Numbered from the stretch's first letter, positions 1-59,237 are shown. The stretch: DNA of 64,000 bases from an uncultured bacterium (GCA_903825415.1 CAIKAN010000028.1:3474-67473), one strand, 5' to 3'. The notes: generated by a model not told the origin, from the letters alone. Program-made: numbers and translations.

Positions 1-170
1 TTCGGAGTTATTGTCAGCATTATGAATGCGGCCCTCTCGTTTTTCTACAACGTTTTCAAGTTGGTCCTATACATTTCACCGGGAATCGGAATATTCCTGA
101 TCCTTACCGTAGTTGGCGCATACGGCATAGCTTTAGCCAAAAAGAGGCTTAAGTTACCCCATAATTAGCC
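1..170 (+). CDS. C-terminal fragment of a hydrophobic (membrane) protein running in from upstream of the window
   Basis: Frame 1 is open from position 1 to a TAG at 168-170 and translates to a hydrophobic peptide (…VFKLVLYISPGIGIFLILTVVGAYGIALAKKRL). No homology recognised. Confidence 0.3.
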
Positions 171-183
171 CCTAAATGCCCCT

Positions 184-438
184 GTGTACGCTTTTCAGGC
201 GAGGTTCGGGGGTAATTACAAACATATGATTTCAAAACAAGCGTTAGAAGAATTCAAAGAGATTTGGCGAAAGGAAAACCCTGGCCAAGATATCGACGAT
301 GCGACTGCGATGGATCAGGCAGTAGCTTTGCTTACTCTCATGGATACAGTCTACAGACCAGTGAAGAAAGAATGGTTCGAGAAGTACAAAGATGAAGTCG
401 ACGAAGAAAATAGTGAAGATAAGGGTGGGGTGAAATAA
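184..438 (+). CDS. hypothetical small acidic protein; its 3' end carries box copy 1 of the ATAGTGA…GGGGT repeat
   Basis: 84-aa ORF in the track. No recognisable motif. It ends inside the 24-nt box at 411-434. Confidence 0.3.
   Translation: MYAFQARFGGNYKHMISKQALEEFKEIWRKENPGQDIDDATAMDQAVALLTLMDTVYRPVKKEWFEKYKDEVDEENSEDKGGVK
411..434 (+). repeat. ATAGTGA-N10-GGGTGGGGT box, copy 1 (ATAGTGAAGATAAGGGTGGGGTGA), followed by a GGGT/ACCC hairpin
   Basis: Matches 3393-3416 at 22 of 23 positions. Related copies start at 617, 3473 and 3680. Confidence 0.6.
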
Positions 439-616
439 CCCAAGGTCGTTATTTACAGTAAAACTTTATAATTTGATAACGCCTGATCATGCCTGTTAAC
501 TCCTGACCGTTAATACGGTTAAATTACGGTGGTCGACCTGATAGAACAGGAAAATAACAGGTGAGCTGGTCCGCAAAGAATTTACGGTGATTACGGTCAC
601 TTAGAAGTAGTCCGAA

Positions 617-640
617 ATAGTGAATGAGACTGTAGGGTAA
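617..640 (+). repeat. ATAGTGA…GGGTAA box, copy 2 (ATAGTGAATGAGACTGTAGGGTAA), followed by the hairpin GGGTAAT…ATTACCC
   Basis: Direct sequence comparison. It starts 206 nt after copy 1. Confidence 0.5.
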
Positions 641-679
641 TAGCCTAAATTACCCATATTTGTCTGCGTTTTATCGGTA

Positions 680-708
680 TTGACAATAGTGCAATATGGG
701 TGTATAAT
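680..708 (+). promoter_or_regulatory. Consensus sigma70-type promoter TTGACA-N17-TATAAT for the DGR target gene; the spacer ATAGTGCAATATGGGTG resembles a degenerate ATAGTGA…GGGTG box
   Basis: TTGACA at 680-685, a 17-nt spacer, TATAAT at 703-708. A 5'-UTR hairpin follows (TCACAGCAGA…TCTGCTGTGA, 746-791), then the RBS AAGGAA before the ATG at 852. Confidence 0.5.
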
Positions 709-851
709 AGTTACATAGTTCTTTGATAGGAAATTGCGAGTTTTATCACAGCAGAAAGTGGCTCATACACATAGGCCATTCTCTGCTGTGATGAAACCAA
801 TGTGGCCAAATCGACAGCGAATCAAACAATGTAAGAAAGGAACAGCTCATC

Positions 852-1583
852 ATGAGTACAGCCTTGAATGAAGTCCCGGGATGGTATATCGAATTCCAAG
901 CGGCGCTTTTGCGCCAAGCTCCTCGCCCGGGGGAGATTGATCAGATGACGGCCGAAGGATGGACCAGCAATCAAAAGGGTCTCAAAAAGAACCTGGCGAA
1001 TTGCCTCCTTCCTCAAACGTCCGTCGTCCCTGTCGAACCGGCCAAGCTCGAGCTTTTGCTCGATCTGGTTGGAACGGTTACAACATCGGCAACCACCAGC
1101 AAGTTCGTCGCCAAAGACAAGTTCGTGGTCAACACCAAGTGCAACGCTCCGGTGAAGATCTCGGCAGTCTGGGACAACTTCACCAGCTGGTTCCTGTCGG
1201 GCGACGGCAAGACCGAAGACCCTATCAGCGAACAGACGCTCCGCTACCACAAATTGCGGAAGTCTTCAGTTGATGGTCCCATCATTACCGAACTGGGTGG
1301 CGAGGAGAAATCCGAAACCACTTTGACGGAAATGTTCTCCTTGATGGAGAAGCAGAAGAATGGTGAAGACGGTGTTCTCCTGAACAACGGCTACGCCAAC
1401 ATCTTCTACATTCGGGACCAGAATGGTGTGCTTCGCGCGGTCTACGTGCGCTGGGACGACGACGGCTGGCGCGTCAGTGCGTTCTCCGTCGAGCTCCCGG
1501 ACGGGTGGGGTGATGGCGACCAGGTGTTCTCTCGCAATTCTGTTCTCGAATCCTCGGAACCTTCGGCTCCGGCGCAAGCCTGA
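852..1583 (+). CDS. DGR target (variable) protein with a C-terminal variable region, presumably a C-type-lectin/FGE-like fold
   Basis: The C-terminal segment …GVLRAVYVRWDDDGWRVSAFSVELPDGWGDGDQVFSR is the nucleotide-level homolog of the downstream template repeat. All mismatches fall at template adenines. Confidence 0.65.
   Translation: MSTALNEVPGWYIEFQAALLRQAPRPGEIDQMTAEGWTSNQKGLKKNLANCLLPQTSVVPVEPAKLELLLDLVGTVTTSATTSKFVAKDKFVVNTKCNAPVKISAVWDNFTSWFLSGDGKTEDPISEQTLRYHKLRKSSVDGPIITELGGEEKSETTLTEMFSLMEKQKNGEDGVLLNNGYANIFYIRDQNGVLRAVYVRWDDDGWRVSAFSVELPDGWGDGDQVFSRNSVLESSEPSAPAQA
1425..1536 (+). repeat. DGR variable region (VR)
   Basis: A roughly 112-nt stretch aligns with 1902-2013. About 17 mismatches, every one at a TR adenine, in the first and second positions of AAC codons. 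The shared 3' end CCAGGTGTTCTCTCG is IMH-like. A GC hairpin (CGGAACC…GGCTCCG) lies at about 1552-1574. Confidence 0.65.
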
Positions 1584-1901
1584 TCCTTTGTCCCTTGGAC
1601 CCTTTGACCCTCGGTCTGCTTCGGCGGATTGGGGGTCAATTTTTTTATATTTAAATTTCTCTTGCTATACTTATTTCCGAAATCATGTGTTACGTGACGG
1701 TCATGGCTTTCACGTCATGGTCTTAGGATATTTTTCTCGAGAGTCATACTGGGTACGCCTTGTATGAGAGTGGGGAAAGTCTCTTCAAAAAAATAACAAG
1801 AATTGGTATATGAGATTAGCGGACTTTGATGTCCCGGATAAAATTCAGCTGGTCATGGTTTGGCTGGCGGTGATATAGATGATCTTGTATACGATAACGC
1901 T

Positions 1902-2013
1902 GGTGTGCTTCGCGCGGTCAACGTGAACTGGAACGACGACGGCTGGAACGTCAATGCGAACTCCGTCGAGAACCCGAACAGGTGGAATGATGGCAACCAG
2001 GTGTTCTCTCGAA
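1902..2013 (+). repeat. DGR template repeat (TR); A-rich with many AAC codons
   Basis: Encodes …NVNWNDDGWNVNANSVENPNRWNDGN; the corresponding positions in the VR differ. ORFs in the track that overlap this repeat on either strand are judged to be translation artefacts. Confidence 0.65.
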
Positions 2014-2034
2014 ACTGTTGGTTTTCTCCTCGGC

Positions 2035-2429
2035 TTAAGGTCGGGGAGTTTTTGCTTGCAAACCCTTCTTCCAACCACCAAGTTGTCGCCCTATTTCCTC
2101 AAGTCTTCCGATTAAGTCCGAGTATGTATCAGTTGGAATAATTTTACTTTCCCATGCGAGTTGCACAAAGAACTTCACAATATCAAGTTTTGTGATGGCT
2201 TTGTTTAATATTGGTATTTTGTGTTCAGGTGGGAGATAAGAAAGACAGAATGTGTATTCAAGTACATCAAGAAAAGCCTGTTCAATTCTGTTTCCAATTC
2301 CATACCGTTCGACTTTCGGAAAATCACGATAGATAGAGAGCCAAAAACGATATGTCTCTTTCGATTTGAGAATTACCTGTGGTAATTCTCGGGGGGGGGG
2401 GTAATATGATCCTTATTAGTATGAGTCAT
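2035..2429 (-). CDS. avd: Avd-like four-helix-bundle protein (accessory variability determinant / 23S-IVS protein family); frame interrupted at the G11 (C11 on this strand) tract
   Basis: The minus-strand frame is open from 2412 to a TAA at 2035-2037. It translates to …ELPQVILKSKETYRFWLSIYRDFPKVERYGIGNRIEQAF…LDIVKFFVQLAWE…LIGRLEEIGRQLGGWKKGL. These match the FPxxERFGL…A.GS…EIGKML.GL family pattern and the Bordetella phage Avd EVGRILGSW. The only upstream ATG (plus coordinates 2429-2427) is out of frame by one nt. A 12-nt tract would give a protein of about 125 aa, MTHTNKDHITPPPPRELPQV…. Confidence 0.55.
2391..2401. repeat. G11/C11 homopolymer tract at the avd/RT junction
   Basis: Eleven consecutive G residues. 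The tract lies 4 nt upstream of the RT ATG at 2406, so it may act as the Shine-Dalgarno element. On the minus strand it lies inside the N-terminal coding region of the avd-like gene. Confidence 0.8.
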
Positions 2430-3416
2430 GAGTATAAGAATATCATATCCATCAAAAATCTATGCGATGCGTGGACCGAATTTATATGTGGCAAGAAATC
2501 TAAAAAGGACGTTGCTGAATTTTCTCTGAATCTCTCTCAAAACATTTTCAAATTGCACGAGGAACTGCGAACAAAAATGTATAGACATGGTGCATACGAA
2601 GCTTTTTCGATAAGTGATCCGAAACCGAGAAGTATTCACAAGGCTACGGTCCGAGATAGATTATTGCATCATGCTATTTACAGGATTTTGTATCCCTATT
2701 TTGATAAAAAGTTTATTTATGATTCCTACTCCTGTCGACAGTTCAAAGGAACACATCGAGCGTTAAATCGGTTCAATGATTTCATGATGAAAGTATCACA
2801 AAGTAATAGTAGGGCATGCTGGGTTCTGAAATGCGATGTAAGAAAGTTTTTCGCATCTATTGATCATGAAAAGCTTATTGAAATATTCAAGCGACATATT
2901 AATGATATGGAAACGATCTGGCTTGTTGAACGCATTGTTGAGAGTTTTCAAAGTACTGGTCCAGGTAAGGGTTTGCCTTTAGGTAACCTGACCTCGCAAC
3001 TTTTGGTAAATGTTTACATGAATGAGTTTGACCAGTTTGTGAAGCACAAGCTCAAAGCTAAGTATTATATTCGGTATGCCGATGACTTCGTTATTATGCA
3101 CCATGAGAAAGATGTGTTGGTGGATATTCTGCCAAAGGTCCAGAGCTTTCTCAGTGAGCAACTAAAGCTGTCTCTTCATCCAGATAAGGTGTTTATAAAG
3201 ACAGCTTCATCAGGCGTAGATTTTCTGGGATGGGTCCATTTTCCGCACCATCGAGTGATACGGATAACAACAAAAAATCGTATGTTCAAGAAAATCAAAG
3301 ATTCTCAAGAAAAGCCGGAAGTCGTCCAGTCGTACCTCGGACTTTTGAGTCATGGTAATGGTTGGAAATTGAAACAGAGAGTTAAGGATAAAATAGTGAA
3401 GACAAGGGTGGGGTAA
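2406..3416 (+). CDS. DGR reverse transcriptase
   Basis: RT motifs are present: N-terminal NLCDAW…GK, motif 4 LPLGNLTSQLL (the DGR-diagnostic [ILV]GxxxSQ), and motif 5 YADD. Size is about 337 aa with no maturase/X domain. The track ORF starts at GTG 2379; ATG 2406 or 2421 is more likely. Confidence 0.85.
   Translation: MILISMSHEYKNIISIKNLCDAWTEFICGKKSKKDVAEFSLNLSQNIFKLHEELRTKMYRHGAYEAFSISDPKPRSIHKATVRDRLLHHAIYRILYPYFDKKFIYDSYSCRQFKGTHRALNRFNDFMMKVSQSNSRACWVLKCDVRKFFASIDHEKLIEIFKRHINDMETIWLVERIVESFQSTGPGKGLPLGNLTSQLLVNVYMNEFDQFVKHKLKAKYYIRYADDFVIMHHEKDVLVDILPKVQSFLSEQLKLSLHPDKVFIKTASSGVDFLGWVHFPHHRVIRITTKNRMFKKIKDSQEKPEVVQSYLGLLSHGNGWKLKQRVKDKIVKTRVG
3393..3416 (+). repeat. ATAGTGA…GGGGTAA box, copy 3 (ATAGTGAAGACAAGGGTGGGGTAA); it overlaps the RT stop codon
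   Basis: Near-identical to copy 1 but read in a different frame. A GGGTAA…TTACCC hairpin follows it. Confidence 0.6.
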
Positions 3417-3472
3417 CTCAATAATTTTACCCGTAATAACGGGAAATTAACGGGAAGTCACTTTTTCGCAAC

Positions 3473-3496
3473 ATAGTGAGTGAGAGTGTGGGGTAA
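3473..3496 (+). repeat. ATAGTGA…GGGGTAA box, copy 4 (ATAGTGAGTGAGAGTGTGGGGTAA)
   Basis: Sequence comparison. Confidence 0.5.
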
Positions 3497-3679
3497 GACT
3501 GATAAAGCAGTTAAAAAGCAGTCTCGCACTCCGTTGTTAATACAACGTGAAAACAACGGCAGTTATTGCCGTTAAAAAACGGTGAAAAAACGGTTAACAC
3601 CCGCCCTTTAAAAAGGGTAAAAAAGGGCGTAGTTATTATAAATACAGATCTGATACAGAGAAGAAATTACTTTTTAGAT

Positions 3680-3703
3680 ATAGTGAGTGCTGGTGTAGGG
3701 TAA
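3680..3703 (+). repeat. ATAGTGA…GGGTAA box, copy 5 (ATAGTGAGTGCTGGTGTAGGGTAA)
   Basis: Sequence comparison. It starts 207 nt after copy 4, mirroring the 206-nt spacing between copies 1 and 2. Confidence 0.5.
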
Positions 3704-3865
3704 CAATCTTTGAAGCTCGGAATGTAGATCGTAGCATCGTCAATTTTTCGGAATATTTCTGTAACTTGAGCGACCACGCGACCCCGAGAAAATGACAGAA
3801 TATTGCGCGATATACCTATTACCTTCTGTGGAGACGGAGAAGAAGTTAGGCTATAATGGCTGATC

Positions 3866-12990: not shown

Positions 12991-13830
12991 ATGCTAGTAA
13001 GTGCTATACTGTCTCCCATGAGTTTTTTCAAATTCAACAAAGAAATAAAGACGGAGGATTTGAAACTTTCAGATTACGATCAAATCTGGACAAAGTTTTG
13101 TTTTCTGGATGAGACAGGGAGTCTGAACAATCTAACAGACCCGTTTTTCAGCGTCGGCATCATTAAATTGAGTCAGCCGTATTATTTGATGAATAAGATC
13201 CTCTATGAGAGAAACAAGAGGAATTTTCATGATGAGATGCATTTCAACAAATTATCGAGGAAGAATATTGAATTTGCGAAGTTTGCGTTAGGAGCATTTT
13301 TTGATGCGAAAAGCACACATTTTTATTCATATTCTATCGATAAGGAAGGGGAATATTTCAAGAAAGAATTTGGCAACGATCCATGGCAGGCGTATGAGCA
13401 ATTGACGATGCGATTGATTGAAGCCGCGCTAGCGGAAAAAGAGATTCTTATCTTACTTGCTGATCATGTCACAACGCCGAAAGATGTTCGATTCGAAGTG
13501 AATGTAAAGAAGAATGTTAACAGTAAGCTGGGCAGATTGGCTTTGGCTGGGGTGTGTCGAATCAATTCGCGCTCTAATGATTTGTTACAGTTAGTTGACC
13601 TCATAATTGGAGCAATCAGTTATGACTTGAAAATCAAGACAGGTGCGATAGAGGGTAATAGTCGCTGTAAAAGAGAATTGCTCAATTGTCTGAAAAAGAA
13701 TCTAGGGACTGATACTCTTATAAATGGATTCAAAAATAGGAATTTCAATATATTTGTCGATAAGGATATGAAGCAAAGGTTGCCGTTGCCGCCAAATACT
13801 GAGGTAAATGAAAAAGAGCAATCATCCTAA
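12991..13830 (+). CDS. hypothetical protein, DUF3800-like (FLDETGS motif)
   Basis: N-terminal …CFLDETGSL… resembles the DUF3800 'FIDESG' signature. Nothing else recognised. Confidence 0.35.
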   Translation: MLVSAILSPMSFFKFNKEIKTEDLKLSDYDQIWTKFCFLDETGSLNNLTDPFFSVGIIKLSQPYYLMNKILYERNKRNFHDEMHFNKLSRKNIEFAKFALGAFFDAKSTHFYSYSIDKEGEYFKKEFGNDPWQAYEQLTMRLIEAALAEKEILILLADHVTTPKDVRFEVNVKKNVNSKLGRLALAGVCRINSRSNDLLQLVDLIIGAISYDLKIKTGAIEGNSRCKRELLNCLKKNLGTDTLINGFKNRNFNIFVDKDMKQRLPLPPNTEVNEKEQSS

Positions 13831-57728: not shown

Positions 57729-59237
57729 ATGTCTAAGGAAACAAAGATGAAGCCTTTCTATATAACTACTACGATTCCGTACGTGAACGCGGAAGCCCAT
57801 ATAGGCCACGCCCTTGAATTTGTCCGTGCGGATATCATCGCGCGCTCAAAGCGATTGTCGGGCTATGAGGTATTTTTTAACACTGGAACCGATGAGCATG
57901 GCATCAAAGTCTTTAAAATAGCTGAACAATTAGGTCTCGAACCACAGGTCTATGTCGATCAGATATCGATTAAATTCAGAGAGATCATGCCTTTATTGGG
58001 TATCAGCGATGATGTGAATTTCATCCGTACTACGGATGCTCATCATATCAAGGCTGCGCAAGAGTTCTGGAATATCGTTAAAAAGAACGGCTATATCTAC
58101 AAGAAAGATTATTCCATAAAATACTGCATCGGTTGCGAGCTGGAGAAGACCGATTCTGAATTGGTGGACGGGCATTGTCCTCTTCATCCGAATCAGGATA
58201 TCGAGATCGTCAAAGAAGAGAATTACTTTTTCAAATTCAGCGCTTTTCAGAGACAGCTACTTGAATTATATTCATCACATCCGAAACTGGTGATCCCTGG
58301 TTCGCGACTGAATGAGATCAGAGCTTTCGTGGAAAGAGGACTGGAAGATTTCAGCATTTCCAGACTGAAGAGCAAAATGCCTTGGGGTGTTCATGTGCCG
58401 GATGATGACCAGCATGTGATGTATGTCTGGTTCGATGCTCTGGTGAATTATATCTCGGCGATAGGTTGGCCAGACGATGTGATTCAAGAAAAAGAAGCCC
58501 CCGGATCATTCAAGAAATGGTGGATAGAGAGCGGCGGGGTAGTGCAATATTGCGGCAAAGACAATCTCCGTCAGCAATCGGCGATGTGGCAGGCAATGCT
58601 CATGGCGGCGGGATTGACGCAGTCGCAGACCATCATCATCGATGGATTTGTGACCGGTGAAGGCGGTATCAAGATGTCGAAGTCTCTGGGCAATGCCGTC
58701 GACCCTCTTGAGATCGTCAGAGAATATGGCGCCGACGTCTTCCGATATTATGTGGCTCGTGAGCTTTCTCCCTTTGAAGACAGCCCATTTACGGTTGATA
58801 AATTCAAGGAAGCCTACAATGCTCATCTGGCGAATGGTTTAGGCAATCTAGTGAGCCGGGTCATGAAGATGGCTACCGCGAATGGTATAGCGCTCTATGA
58901 AGGAGATAAGTCTCGATCAGATTTCTCCAGCACAGACGAGGGGGTGGCTGCGATCAAGGGGTATGGAGAAGGCTTCAATGGATTCGATCTGCAAAGCGCT
59001 TCGAATGTGATCTGGAGCTTGATATCGAAAGCGGATTCGATCATCCAAGAGCGCCAGCCTTTCAAGAAGATAAAGACGGATCGAGCAGAAGCGGAGAGAG
59101 ATATCCTTGAATTGTTGGGCCGCCTTGAATTTATCGCCAAATCATTGTTACCTATAATGCCTGAAACAGCGCGCAAGATCATCGAACTCATTCGGAAAAA
59201 TGAAATGCCAGCATCTCCGCTATTCGCAAGGAAATGA
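57729..59237 (+). CDS. metG: methionine--tRNA ligase (short form)
   Basis: TTTIPYVNAEAHIGHALEF (HIGH), CxxC knuckles (CIGC…CPLH) and KMSKSLGN. Confidence 0.9.
   Translation: MSKETKMKPFYITTTIPYVNAEAHIGHALEFVRADIIARSKRLSGYEVFFNTGTDEHGIKVFKIAEQLGLEPQVYVDQISIKFREIMPLLGISDDVNFIRTTDAHHIKAAQEFWNIVKKNGYIYKKDYSIKYCIGCELEKTDSELVDGHCPLHPNQDIEIVKEENYFFKFSAFQRQLLELYSSHPKLVIPGSRLNEIRAFVERGLEDFSISRLKSKMPWGVHVPDDDQHVMYVWFDALVNYISAIGWPDDVIQEKEAPGSFKKWWIESGGVVQYCGKDNLRQQSAMWQAMLMAAGLTQSQTIIIDGFVTGEGGIKMSKSLGNAVDPLEIVREYGADVFRYYVARELSPFEDSPFTVDKFKEAYNAHLANGLGNLVSRVMKMATANGIALYEGDKSRSDFSSTDEGVAAIKGYGEGFNGFDLQSASNVIWSLISKADSIIQERQPFKKIKTDRAEAERDILELLGRLEFIAKSLLPIMPETARKIIELIRKNEMPASPLFARK

Follow-up and report, generated by a model that had tools for sequence, protein, structure and literature searches.

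Boxes around a DGR are best explained as repeated cis-acting sites of a mobile integrative Patescibacteria island

Introduction

The stoperator/operator sites of temperate mycobacteriophages, such as those of L5 gp71, are asymmetric and 13 bp long. Like the boxes analyzed herein, they are multicopy, keep one orientation to transcription, lie at gene boundaries where they overlap stop or start codons, and place one copy at a regulatory promoter; the boxes differ in their length of 24 nt with a variable middle, and in forming a terminal cluster instead of being spread along the element. A second parallel is offered by the iterons and Rep-operator sites known from the origins of plasmids, phages and satellites. 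Like the boxes, which number 3-6 per array, they are co-oriented direct repeats of ~20 nt with A-tracts and hairpins nearby, and a further copy marks the promoter of the operon for replication genes, a copy that the present island family shows in relatives together with a helicase gene. In contrast, the boxes are spaced at 80, 207 and 136-457 nt with no regular helical phasing, an irregularity unlike classical iterons that speaks against a binding-site reading. The array moreover lies at the island end opposite the helicase gene and tolerates kilobase-sized interruptions (2.8-6.4 kb), an unusual property for an origin.

Composite islands of the staphylococcal cassette chromosome (SCC; ISS direct repeats, Ccr large serine recombinases) share with this island family a large serine recombinase, found here in relatives (loci L131-L134) in a region outside the window, short direct repeats of one orientation that mark modules, some without a recombinase of their own, and one repeat overlapping the 3' end of a gene; unlike in SCC, the box is not the attachment core of the recombinase and has no dyad symmetry. 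Integron attC arrays are similar in that a gene is followed by a 3' recombination-site-like element with a hairpin, in the common orientation of all sites, in non-coding 'cassettes', and in gain, loss and reordering at the sites. However, the boxes are accompanied by neither IntI nor an attI/Pc platform, and are conserved in sequence, not in structure. Gene tables covering 6-10 kb around each array contained no Phage_integrase match, and no attC R''/R' core pair (RYYYAAC/GTTRRRY, 40-140 nt apart, imperfect palindrome) was found on either strand of either array half. Islands that integrate into tRNA genes with defence cargo likewise insert at the tRNA gene 3' end, with an integrase at one end and variable defence genes; the present family departs from them in its integrase, a large serine recombinase and not the usual tyrosine type, and in the complete diversity-generating retroelement (DGR) within its cargo, the terminal box array and the Patescibacteria host. 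A CRISPR array was rejected because the box repeats have a variable 8-nt middle and spacers of 56 nt to several kb; the gene tables of the array loci contained no cas genes. Nor does the box fit the Xer/dif-type design of IMEX and pdif modules (two inverted 11-nt arms with a 6-nt centre).

Boxes in the window

The window, i.e. the whole 64-kb stretch of DNA that was analyzed, contains five copies of a 24-nt box with the consensus ATAGTGA-N8-GTRGGGTAA, all on the + strand.

410-433, + strand: box 1, b1 type, ATAGTGAAGATAAGGGTGGGGTGA, one mismatch, TGA for TAA
617-640, + strand: box 2, b2 type, left flanking copy of the DGR insertion
3393-3416, + strand: box 3, b1 type, right flanking copy of the DGR insertion
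3473-3496, + strand: box 4, b4 type
3680-3703, + strand: box 5, b5 type

No other copy was found in the 64 kb at up to two mismatches, in good agreement with the original prediction of five locus-specific copies; the one additional match at three mismatches (58524) is within chance. The chance expectation for the box was 0.04, and a count of five was reached in 0 of 100 shuffles. The prediction had recognized the family itself, although its spacer of N10 should read N8 and its pattern as written matches one site only; the first copy starts at 410, not 411. Two of the 24 positions distinguish boxes 1 and 3 (24/25 if the AAA prefix is included), which close two ORFs in different reading frames, ...NSEDKGGVK* and ...KIVKTRVG*, respectively; the RT gene takes its final eight codons and its stop from box 3. 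Their near-identity across frames was confirmed, as was conservation of the DNA itself, whatever the reading frame. On the minus strand, box 5 encodes YPTPALTI of a micro-ORF. The top strand of the boxes is nearly free of C (G50 A39 T28 C3), and dyad symmetry is absent, with 4-8 of 24 positions self-complementary, the chance level.

The array and its distribution

The boxes are members of an array with the following further parts.

154-225, + strand: leader of the 70-aa gene, TTACCCCATAATTAGCCCC...GGGGGTAAT, whose first bases repeat the box 3' half in inverted orientation
226-438, + strand: ORF70, 70 aa, conserved domain at aa 1-52, C-terminal tail from box 1
433-454: hairpin 3' of box 1, AAATAAC/GTTATTT stem
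434-616: inter-box spacer c1, with units made of an inverted repeat and a third, direct copy, for example 506-531 (ACCGTtaatACGGTtaaattACGGT)
635-655: hairpin 3' of box 2, GGGTAAT...ATTACCC, where array homology stops
3410-3432: hairpin 3' of box 3, GGGGTAA...TTACCC
3430-3455: CCCGTaataACGGGaaattaACGGG unit, CCCGT/ACGGG stem and a second ACGGG copy
3497-3679: spacer between boxes 4 and 5, with phased A-tracts and four inverted+direct repeat units (3498-3525, 3532-3560, 3569-3597, 3604-3630)
3667-3777, - strand: micro-ORF, 36 codons from GTG, VAQVTEIFRKIDDATIYIPSFKDCYPTPALTISKK
3768-3791: right terminus of the island, GAGCGACCACGCGACCCC and then flank; homology to all relatives stops here

The leader is kept in all ORF70 loci, and a diverged copy of it lies 3' of the RT stop codon in L002, L007, L019 and L121. 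A GGGTAA...TTACCC-type hairpin, predicted to follow every box, follows boxes 2 and 3 but not boxes 1, 4 and 5. The box 1 hairpin shows a compensated pair in L101 (AATAAT/ATTATT), the CCCGT/ACGGG stem and second ACGGG of the 3430-3455 unit are invariant in 15 arrays, and box 4 continues into an AGACTG/CAGTCT unit. Six of the 11 inverted+direct repeat units of the whole window are located within the ~450 nt of spacers (3.8 expected window-wide). Coding-like sequence comes after box 5.

The same boxes were found in about 20 distinct Patescibacteria loci, amounting to 81 distinct contexts (60-nt flanks) from many samples and MAGs, against which chance or a recent local duplication confined to the strain, an outcome considered beforehand, has next to no probability. 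The claim that the boxes occur only in this locus is accordingly valid for the window but fails beyond it, where DGR-less loci also carry them. Relative to ORF70 or the RT, the box orientation was the same in 108 cases and opposite in none (~110 loci). A typical array is non-coding, comprises 3-6 boxes in 0.4-0.7 kb and lies 3' of ORF70; most follow restriction-modification or toxin cargo and have no DGR in their vicinity. ORF70 and the array are preceded by R-M, Fic, HigB/M78, GmrSD, PDC-S46 or a phage-like region (L101-L113, L127-L130), and in L111 by just the end of a 48-aa ORF. At least 12 array loci of this set are free of a DGR across the 6 kb analyzed on each side; L121, the 10-kb flank of one such context, has an RT gene ~9 kb upstream.

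Array identity across loci is 71-87%, spacers included, with the spacing box 1-207-box 2-80-box 4, and spacer c1 is 75-87% conserved in DGR-less arrays; this conservation of the spacers favours a functional cis region over mere scars. The distance between boxes 1 and 2 is 205-208 nt in other loci (L107 excepted, 111 nt), whereas that between boxes 4 and 5 varies from 136 to 457 nt. The proposed mirrored spacing of 206 and 207 nt, both in fact 207 nt start to start, is therefore a coincidence. In L119, L124, L131, L133 and L019, one box lies in the divergent promoter region of a helicase/recombinase operon, ~55 nt upstream of its first gene (in relatives, outside the window).

The DGR core as an insertion

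The DGR interrupts the array between boxes 2 and 3, and consists of the following features.

656-3392, + strand: DGR core, an insertion into the array
680-708: DGR promoter
852-1583: DGR target gene, with VR at 1424-1537
1604-1639: terminator in the DGR core
1901-2014: TR
~2035-2432, - strand: avd, Avd identified, with a G11 tract at 2391-2401
2406-3416: RT gene, RVT_1 match

TR and VR differences fall at TR adenines in 17 of 17 cases. DGR-less arrays align to 156-640/655 of the window and then to 3391-3495, with one box common to both parts; since they run from 156-655 straight into 3391 and share this box, the ~2.78 kb in between is an insertion. The inserted unit of 2,776 nt comprises the DGR core, one box and a hairpin, and the duplicated part around it is a box plus hairpin of ~39 nt. 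As judged from these alignments, the DGR is evidently spliced into the non-coding array of an island at a box. The arrangement represents a single lineage (the window, L001, L114, L115 and L118). Of the predicted mobile DGR cassette of ~3 kb delimited by boxes, the presence of boxes at the joints of a DGR-containing insertion stood up; its bounds are boxes 2 and 3 instead of 1 and 3, as the DGR-less relatives showed, the boxes are not the DGR's own, and what actually moves is a far larger island. A supposed sixth box in the promoter spacer (686-702) had to be abandoned, since the spacers of L002, L006, L007 and L019 have no ATAGTG and conserve only the extended -10 (TAGGTGTATAAT).

Box edges as module joints

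Homology breakpoints gathered at the box edges, 90 of 124 at positions 21-24 and 85 of 176 at -1 to +3, in counts over pairs of loci that are not phylogenetically independent. Unrelated flanks begin exactly at the box 3' edge in L101, L111, L122, L127, L129 and L019. Other box-flanked inserts, of 4.1 kb in L113 and 6.4 kb in L119/L101, hold ordinary housekeeping-type genes, and the duplicated part flanking the L113 and L119 inserts coincides with the box (24-36 nt). Three genes end in a box, namely ORF70, the RT and DUF2726, the last fused to a b1-type box in L124, and the cassette order is permuted in L128. At the DGR insertion, the middle (N8) of box 2 is that of the recipient and the middle of box 3 that of the donor, and the identity blocks in the box measure only 7 and 9 nt. 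Such lengths fall short of the minimal homology with which RecA recombines efficiently, and the sharp junctions therefore agree no less well with a site-specific enzyme.

The mobile island

In the relatives, one end of the island is formed by tRNA-His followed by a leftward-transcribed block with one box at its promoter, which encodes a large serine recombinase, a helicase, a putative winged-helix protein and two further small genes. Beyond this promoter box come sometimes a DGR and then variable defence or metal-resistance cargo, and the far end consists of the leader with ORF70, 3-6 arrayed boxes with hairpin-rich spacers, the micro-ORF and the terminus. The protein adjoining tRNA-His has 535 aa (Resolvase/Recombinase/Zn_ribbon_recom), the recombinase lies beside the helicase in L131-L134, the helicase belongs to the toprim primase-helicase family, and the putative winged-helix protein matches Trans_reg_C below the Pfam cut-off (19.8 and 22.4 bits vs 26.2). 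The window starts inside the island and holds its right-hand 3.8 kb, up to an end at ~3786-3791; it does not reach the recombinase, the helicase or the promoter box, whose presence in this genome we infer from the relatives. At one island end, tRNA-His ...CACCCCA is followed by TTCGAGAAT, and the other end reads ...GCGACCCC(A) before the flank; the attachment core, ACCCCA at tRNA-His, is a different sequence from the box. In L103, the array tail and recombinase-proximal sequence are connected through an attP-like joint.

Interpretation of the boxes

The boxes are best explained, on the sequence comparisons above, as repeated cis-acting sites of a mobile integrative Patescibacteria island and not as DGR components. 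More specifically, we assign a probability of roughly 0.5 to the reading in which the island uses them as asymmetric sites for protein binding and crossovers also take place at them. Each box would be an orientation-specific site for an island-encoded DNA-binding protein, and the boxes may serve as operator, iteron or 'stoperator'-like sites controlling island transcription or replication, an operator role being, in our view, the more likely primary function. Because they are the sole sequence common to otherwise unrelated modules, they would be points of repeated crossover, through which modules may be gained, lost and reordered. The DGR core could have entered the array by the same route, with an exchange point probably within GTRGGGTAA and a donor of box 3 in which the RT gene was already fused to an ORF70-type box. 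The comparisons show directly that the boxes belong to the array, that the DGR is inserted, that junctions fall at boxes and that all this is set in an island; protein binding, the binder and the exchange enzyme are what we infer here, and no box-binding protein or box-acting recombinase was identified. Counting against this reading, the candidate binders were limited to the putative winged-helix protein, with its sub-threshold Trans_reg_C match, and ORF70, which gave no fold match, and the recombinase, helicase and promoter box are known from relatives.

Alternatively, the boxes might be dedicated attachment sites of a cassette-capture system comparable to integron attC or SCC direct repeats, a possibility we regard with some doubt. 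Either circular one-box segments would integrate at a resident box, or an enzyme would cut both box edges and duplicate the box, as happens to the CRISPR repeat when a spacer is integrated. The DGR would then count as one such cassette of 2,776 nt, and recombination would depend on an enzyme supplied in trans, which may be the large serine recombinase of the island or another. The inserts of 2.8, 4.1 and 6.4 kb between direct boxes with box-sized duplications, the unrelated flanks starting at the 3' edge and the permuted order in L128 all agree with this, as do the genes ending in a box like ORF + 3' site cassettes, the hybrid middles of boxes 2 and 3, which fit reciprocal exchange, the short identity blocks and the recombinase of the island family. 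Nevertheless, most arrays have no recombinase within 10 kb (Pfam gene tables), the box lacks the dyad symmetry typical of tyrosine or serine recombinase core sites, and the island's own core lies elsewhere. Furthermore, the majority of 'cassettes' are short non-coding segments whose sequence and order are conserved, the larger inserts carry housekeeping-type genes, and a single deletion between directly repeated boxes in tandem islands would also yield the single-lineage DGR arrangement.

It appears improbable that boxes and hairpins constitute a structured RNA or RNA processing/termination signals in the transcript leaving ORF70 or the RT. Such a role, also raised by the original prediction, would suit the co-orientation with upstream genes, the overlapped stop codons and the hairpin-rich arrays (z = -3.6 and -2.2 vs shuffles). 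However, no Rfam match was obtained at any box (E up to 1), the RNAalifold consensus of 15 arrays contained invariant pairs only, with no compensatory change, and one box belongs to a divergent promoter region and not to a 3' UTR. The complementary strand folds equally well (z = -3.9 and -1.9), and the hairpin signal therefore reflects DNA dyad symmetry; of conservation at the 'DNA/RNA level', only the DNA part was retained. Even less credible is that the boxes are working DGR parts (homing/target-recognition signals, RT-Avd binding sites or DGR RNA elements). While boxes stand on both sides of the DGR in the window, one giving the RT stop codon, and a box is near 7 of 80 related DGR loci, the distribution already contradicts this: arrays occur in the 12 or more loci described above that show no DGR within 6 kb on either side, the DGR cores of L004, L006 and L007 (RT identity 81-94%) are without any box, and the box shares nothing with TR, VR or their 3' ends.

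Small ORFs of the array

ORF70, previously counted from ATG as an 84-aa ORF, has homologues in 68 clusters (51-100% identity) and belongs to no Pfam family. Its AF2 model, a helix-loop-long helix with a pLDDT of 84, gave no fold match and no recognisable DNA-binding fold; a longer variant bears a DUF7695 zinc ribbon. The micro-ORF has only three homologues, all tiny, among the 5.8e9 proteins searched, and contains stop codons in L003 and L049. Its substitutions are of the coding type, with third-codon positions varying at 31/40 sites vs 19/40 and 14/40.

Box family in the window

A scan of the 64-kb window for the 24-nt box ATAGTGA-N8-GTRGGGTAA identified five copies, all on the + strand (410, 617, 3393, 3473 and 3680; boxes 1-5), against a chance expectation of 0.04 copies in a dinucleotide-preserving shuffle. 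No box beyond these five was found in the window, and a scan relaxed to three mismatches yielded one further match at 58524, which is at the chance level. The five-copy family of the original prediction was accordingly real and confined to these sites within the window, but its N10 spelling matches one site only and N8 is correct. A scan of IMG/VR gave only 20 matches, all single and chance-like.

Boxes 1 and 3 are identical at all but 2 of their 24 positions, the former constituting the end of a small ORF (ORF70, window 226-438) and the latter that of the RT gene. Since they close these ORFs in different frames, the conservation lies at the DNA level, as had been claimed. Other features ascribed to the boxes did not hold. 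The GGGTAA/TTACCC hairpin, described after every box, follows boxes 2 and 3 only, and the mirrored 207-nt spacings are a coincidence, as the distance between boxes 4 and 5 ranges from 136 to 457 nt across the related loci fetched for comparison (L-numbers hereafter). The distance between boxes 1 and 2 is usually kept at 205-208 nt, with L107 (111 nt) as the exception. In the promoter spacer, where a sixth box had been suspected, relatives keep the extended -10 element TAGGTGTATAAT alone.

Organization of the DGR

The DGR in the window was canonical in layout:

680-708, perfect sigma-70 promoter
852-1583, DGR target gene, with the variable repeat (VR) at 1424-1537
1901-2014, template repeat (TR)
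minus strand, avd (NCBIfam DivGenRetAVD, E 1e-16)
2406-3416, RT gene (RVT_1)

All TR/VR differences (17/17) are located at TR adenines. The host belongs to the Patescibacteria (Paceibacteria), and the closest related locus is L001, with an RT identity of 99%.

Several minor features were also observed. A G11 homopolymer (window 2391-2401) is situated between avd, on the minus strand, and the divergently oriented RT gene; avd joins the frame of the sole upstream ATG (~2432) only with a tract length of 12 or 9, and relatives have 8, 9, 10 or 11 G. The tract could reflect slippage or phase variation of avd, or else homopolymer assembly noise. Just upstream of TR, window 1690-1801 gave a weak, sub-threshold match to the Rfam RT-9 RNA (30.5 vs 46.1 bits, E 0.046). 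The 5' UTR of the target gene carries a 23-nt inverted repeat (740-797, 87% complementary), which is kept in L006 and L007 and replaced by a different hairpin in L001, L002 and L019. The G+C content of the target gene is ~52-58%, as compared with ~36-40% in the RT gene and the array of boxes. The target gene could not be aligned to L001 over its N-terminal portion (765-1086), the remainder being 98% identical.

Separate occurrence of the boxes and the DGR

Among 80 related DGR loci fetched as a comparison set, the box was present only in the closest relatives L001, L002, L003 and L005, and in L019, L049 and L051; L004, L006 and L007 have the same DGR core (RT identity 81-94%) but no box. In L002, ORF70 is located downstream of the RT gene and runs straight into the sequence found after box 3 in the window, which showed that ORF70 and the boxes together constitute a separate unit. 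ORF70 was mostly encountered downstream of defence-type cargo, as listed below. No DGR was found within the 6 kb fetched on either side of such contexts; when the L103 context is extended (L121), an RT gene appears ~9 kb upstream.

Table. Cargo accompanying ORF70 in related loci
L101: HinfI, two methylases and HigB/M78
L103, L107: type III-like methylase and ResIII
L113: EcoRI methylase, GmrSD and PDC-S46
L127, L129: Fic and type I R-M
L128: phage-like region with terminase genes

After each ORF70 example (L101, L103, L107, L113 and L127-L129) lies an array of 0.4-0.7 kb of non-coding DNA with 2-6 boxes. In ~110 loci oriented by ORF70 or RT, 108 boxes were on the + strand and 0 on the - strand; the boxes are strictly polar, and the array is conserved as a whole. 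The following types were distinguished:

b1, at the 3' end of ORF70
b2 and b4, both inside the array
b5, preceded by ttatttttagat
left-hand box, preceded by ttttccaat

The bracketing of the DGR that underlay the original prediction was thus a sound observation with a wrong assignment, since boxes occur without a DGR and the DGR core occurs without boxes. The boxes are cis elements of an island family, and they bracket the DGR because it was inserted into the pre-existing box array of a mobile island. Repeats beside a DGR need not be DGR parts.

Insertion of the DGR into the array

The DGR-less arrays of L127, L130, L117, L103, L113 and L111 align contiguously to window 156-640/655 and then resume at 3391-3495, and the lone b2 box of a DGR-less locus has its match in box 2 as well as in box 3 of the window. 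Because DGR-less arrays share a single box at this point, the inserted DNA amounts to 2,776 nt, comprising the DGR core, one box and the hairpin, and its boundaries are boxes 2 and 3 instead of the originally proposed boxes 1 and 3. The middle sequence of box 2 is of the recipient type and that of box 3 of the b1 type, while the hairpin and spacer downstream of box 3 match the "short array" of L002, L116, L128 and L129. The fusion of the RT gene to a box is best explained by a deletion between AAGATAG (RT end) and AAAATAG (ORF70 end), through which an L002-like order of RT, leader, ORF70 and box would have lost the leader and ORF70. The arrangement in the window could then have arisen from a circle integrating by box x box exchange, or from a single deletion that joined direct boxes belonging to two tandem islands; either route would require exchange at a box.

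Structure of the island

An upstream block consisting of a 449-aa P-loop protein, a ~190-aa protein and a box is common to L119, L124 and L019. Of these loci, only L119 and L124 yielded the ~190-aa protein (putative winged-helix protein; L124, 2299-2868, minus strand), with a sub-threshold Trans_reg_C match in both. The P-loop protein is the helicase moiety of a toprim primase-helicase family. In L131-L134, the helicase is adjacent to a large serine recombinase of 535 aa (Resolvase, Recombinase, Zn_ribbon_recom), and the 3' end of the recombinase gene abuts the 3' end of tRNA-His(gtg). L131 represents a complete island of ~9.6 kb, with the following order:

recombinase
helicase
two small genes
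~200-aa protein
left-hand box
copper-resistance cargo
degenerate box
b5
tail

In L019 and L133, a DGR directly follows the left-hand box. The right end of every island reads ...GCGACCACGCGACCC(C), and in L103 it is joined to TTCGAGAATCAGTTGTTGAAAAGCGA. Since TTCGAGAATCAGTTGTTGAAAAGCGA is the sequence next to tRNA-His at the recombinase end, this joint is attP-like; a whole-island attP joint would read ...GCGACCCCA-TTCGAGAATCAGTTG. The island therefore terminates at window ~3786-3791. The first 153 nt of the window match the gene upstream of ORF70 in L101, indicating that the window begins inside the island. L001 has the same 3.6-kb module with unrelated flanks.

The leader (window 154-160, also 208-215) starts with TTACCCCAT, which is the reverse complement of the box 3' half and is also similar to CACCCCAT, the attachment core of the island at the 3' end of tRNA-His (L131, ~13000-13010); the homology of L001 and L002 to the window starts at this motif. 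Directly after the left-hand box or a DGR RT gene, a ~118-aa protein family (MK.FIKAG...TIYDYK) with a leader-like element before it was observed in L119 (2676-3032), L124, L121, L130, L007 and L019; it had no match in Pfam or NCBIfam.

Module junctions at boxes

Modules, the DGR included, join at boxes. In L113, two b1-type boxes enclose 4.1 kb of DNA with four ordinary genes, and ~30 nt is duplicated. L119/L101 has a b5-type box on either side of a 6.4-kb segment; here the duplication covers ~36 nt, and the tail follows only the right-hand copy. The DUF2726 gene of L124 terminates in a b1-type box, the first two spacers of L128 are in permuted order relative to L101, and unrelated flanking DNA starts right after GGGTAA in L101, L111, L122, L127, L129 and L019.

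Breakpoints were surveyed by pairwise comparison of 81 distinct box contexts. In pairs homologous upstream and unrelated downstream, they fell at box positions 21-24 in 90 of 124; in the converse pairs, they fell at -1 to +3 in 85 of 176 and just 5' of GTRGGGTAA in 42, these figures being descriptive because the pairs are not phylogenetically independent.

Array spacers and tail

The spacers are 71-87% identical between islands and are packed with units of one geometry and different sequences, each an inverted repeat whose 3' arm recurs ~11 nt further along as a third, direct copy (e.g., CCCGTaataACGGGaaattaACGGG and CCGTTaaaaaACGGTgaaaaaACGGT). Six of the 11 units in the window lie within the ~450 nt of spacer, with 3.8 expected window-wide, and the CCCGT/ACGGG stem and second ACGGG copy of CCCGTaataACGGGaaattaACGGG are invariant in 15 arrays. 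Folding relative to shuffles was about equal on both strands of the array, and no compensatory pairs were found in it; the signal is therefore one of DNA dyad symmetry rather than demonstrable RNA. A-tracts phased at 10-11 nt were also seen in the spacers (window 434-616 and 3417-3679).

The ~90-nt tail after box 5 can be read on the minus strand as a micro-ORF of 36 codons (window 3667-3777, overlapping box 5). Its substitutions are of the coding type, third positions varying in 31/40 vs 19/40 and 14/40 at the first two; it is interrupted by stop codons in L003 and L049 and has almost no homologues. The possibility that the tail is a displaced 3' fragment of a host gene, of the kind left by classical integration at tRNA genes or gene ends, was rejected, as a search of 5.8e9 proteins returned no full-length homologue and only three ORFs of 45-57 aa. 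Since the region upstream of the micro-ORF is host flank when the island is integrated, one might speculate that it is expressed only from the excised circle.

Possible function of the boxes

This element has its parallels among repeated cis sites already described from mobile DNA, and searches of a paper library on integrons, serine recombinases or islands in Patescibacteria and on mobile DGR cassettes returned no description of it. In relatives, one box is located at the promoter of the recombinase/helicase operon. We favour the reading, with a probability of roughly one half, that the boxes are primarily asymmetric sites for protein binding, of the operator, iteron or stoperator-like type, and at the same time serve as crossover points. 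This reading covers the polarity of the boxes and their lack of dyad symmetry, as well as the copy at the promoter and the conservation of the non-coding spacers. The main rival, which we regard as possible though doubtful, is that they are dedicated attachment sites of a cassette-capture system in Patescibacteria, by which defence genes and even a whole DGR would be gathered in a terminal array of a serine-recombinase island, an asymmetric site being cut or exchanged at the box edges with no recombinase beside the array. The box-sized duplications, and the sharpness of junctions where the identity blocks measure only 7 and 9 nt, are more readily accounted for in this way. Against it stand the absence of an enzyme, of a symmetric core and of coding cassettes. 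A role at the RNA level, which had been considered originally, is very unlikely: the boxes gave no Rfam match, no covariation or compensatory pair and no strand preference. Still less probable is a DGR-specific role, despite the position of the boxes around the DGR. Readings as integron attC, Xer/dif or CRISPR sites were rejected since box tests and gene tables revealed none of the defining features, and so was a phage-type (T7-like) minus-strand promoter (TTACCC...TCACTAT), whose orientation would yield antisense transcripts and against which the isolated, chance-like matches of the IMG/VR scan also spoke.

The mobile elements of Patescibacteria (candidate phyla radiation) are poorly charted. 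Here, a complete and apparently active DGR is part of the cargo of an island which uses a serine recombinase to integrate at tRNA-His and also holds restriction-modification, toxin and other defence genes, and a short asymmetric box marks the points at which such cargo is exchanged. As protein-binding control sites, the boxes would offer a handle on island silencing or replication. As attachment sites, they would define a new mode of gene-cassette assembly, in effect adding a third type of cassette array to integrons and SCC elements, with a 24-nt site compact enough for recombination study in vitro.

ORF70 and its relatives

ORF70 comprises 70 aa from ATG and belongs to a narrow family of 68 clusters without a Pfam domain. 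The protein has a helical domain of 52 aa, which is conserved, and a variable C-terminal tail, which is simply box sequence in translation. Searches for its function in Pfam, PHROGs and PADLOC, and a PDB fold search with its AF2 model (pLDDT 84), returned no match; NCBIfam gave one far sub-threshold match (E 0.028, 14 bits vs a cut-off of 100), PDB sequences nothing meaningful (best E 0.013), and viral contigs no relatives. A longer variant (P0063, in L111) has a DUF7695 zinc ribbon, and there the first box lies immediately 3' of the stop codon.

DUF7695 zinc-ribbon proteins were also seen at the left edge of defence cargo (L103, 2-193; L113, 1-242), and in L111 (230-568) this domain is fused to the ORF70 domain. 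The phage-like contigs L126 and L128 are 99.98% identical over 10 kb and part inside ORF70, ~34 codons in (L128, 10102; codon 18 is the last shared in the printed sequences), with a box array past the split in one and unrelated small genes in the other, which could represent an alternative integration state or an assembly chimera.
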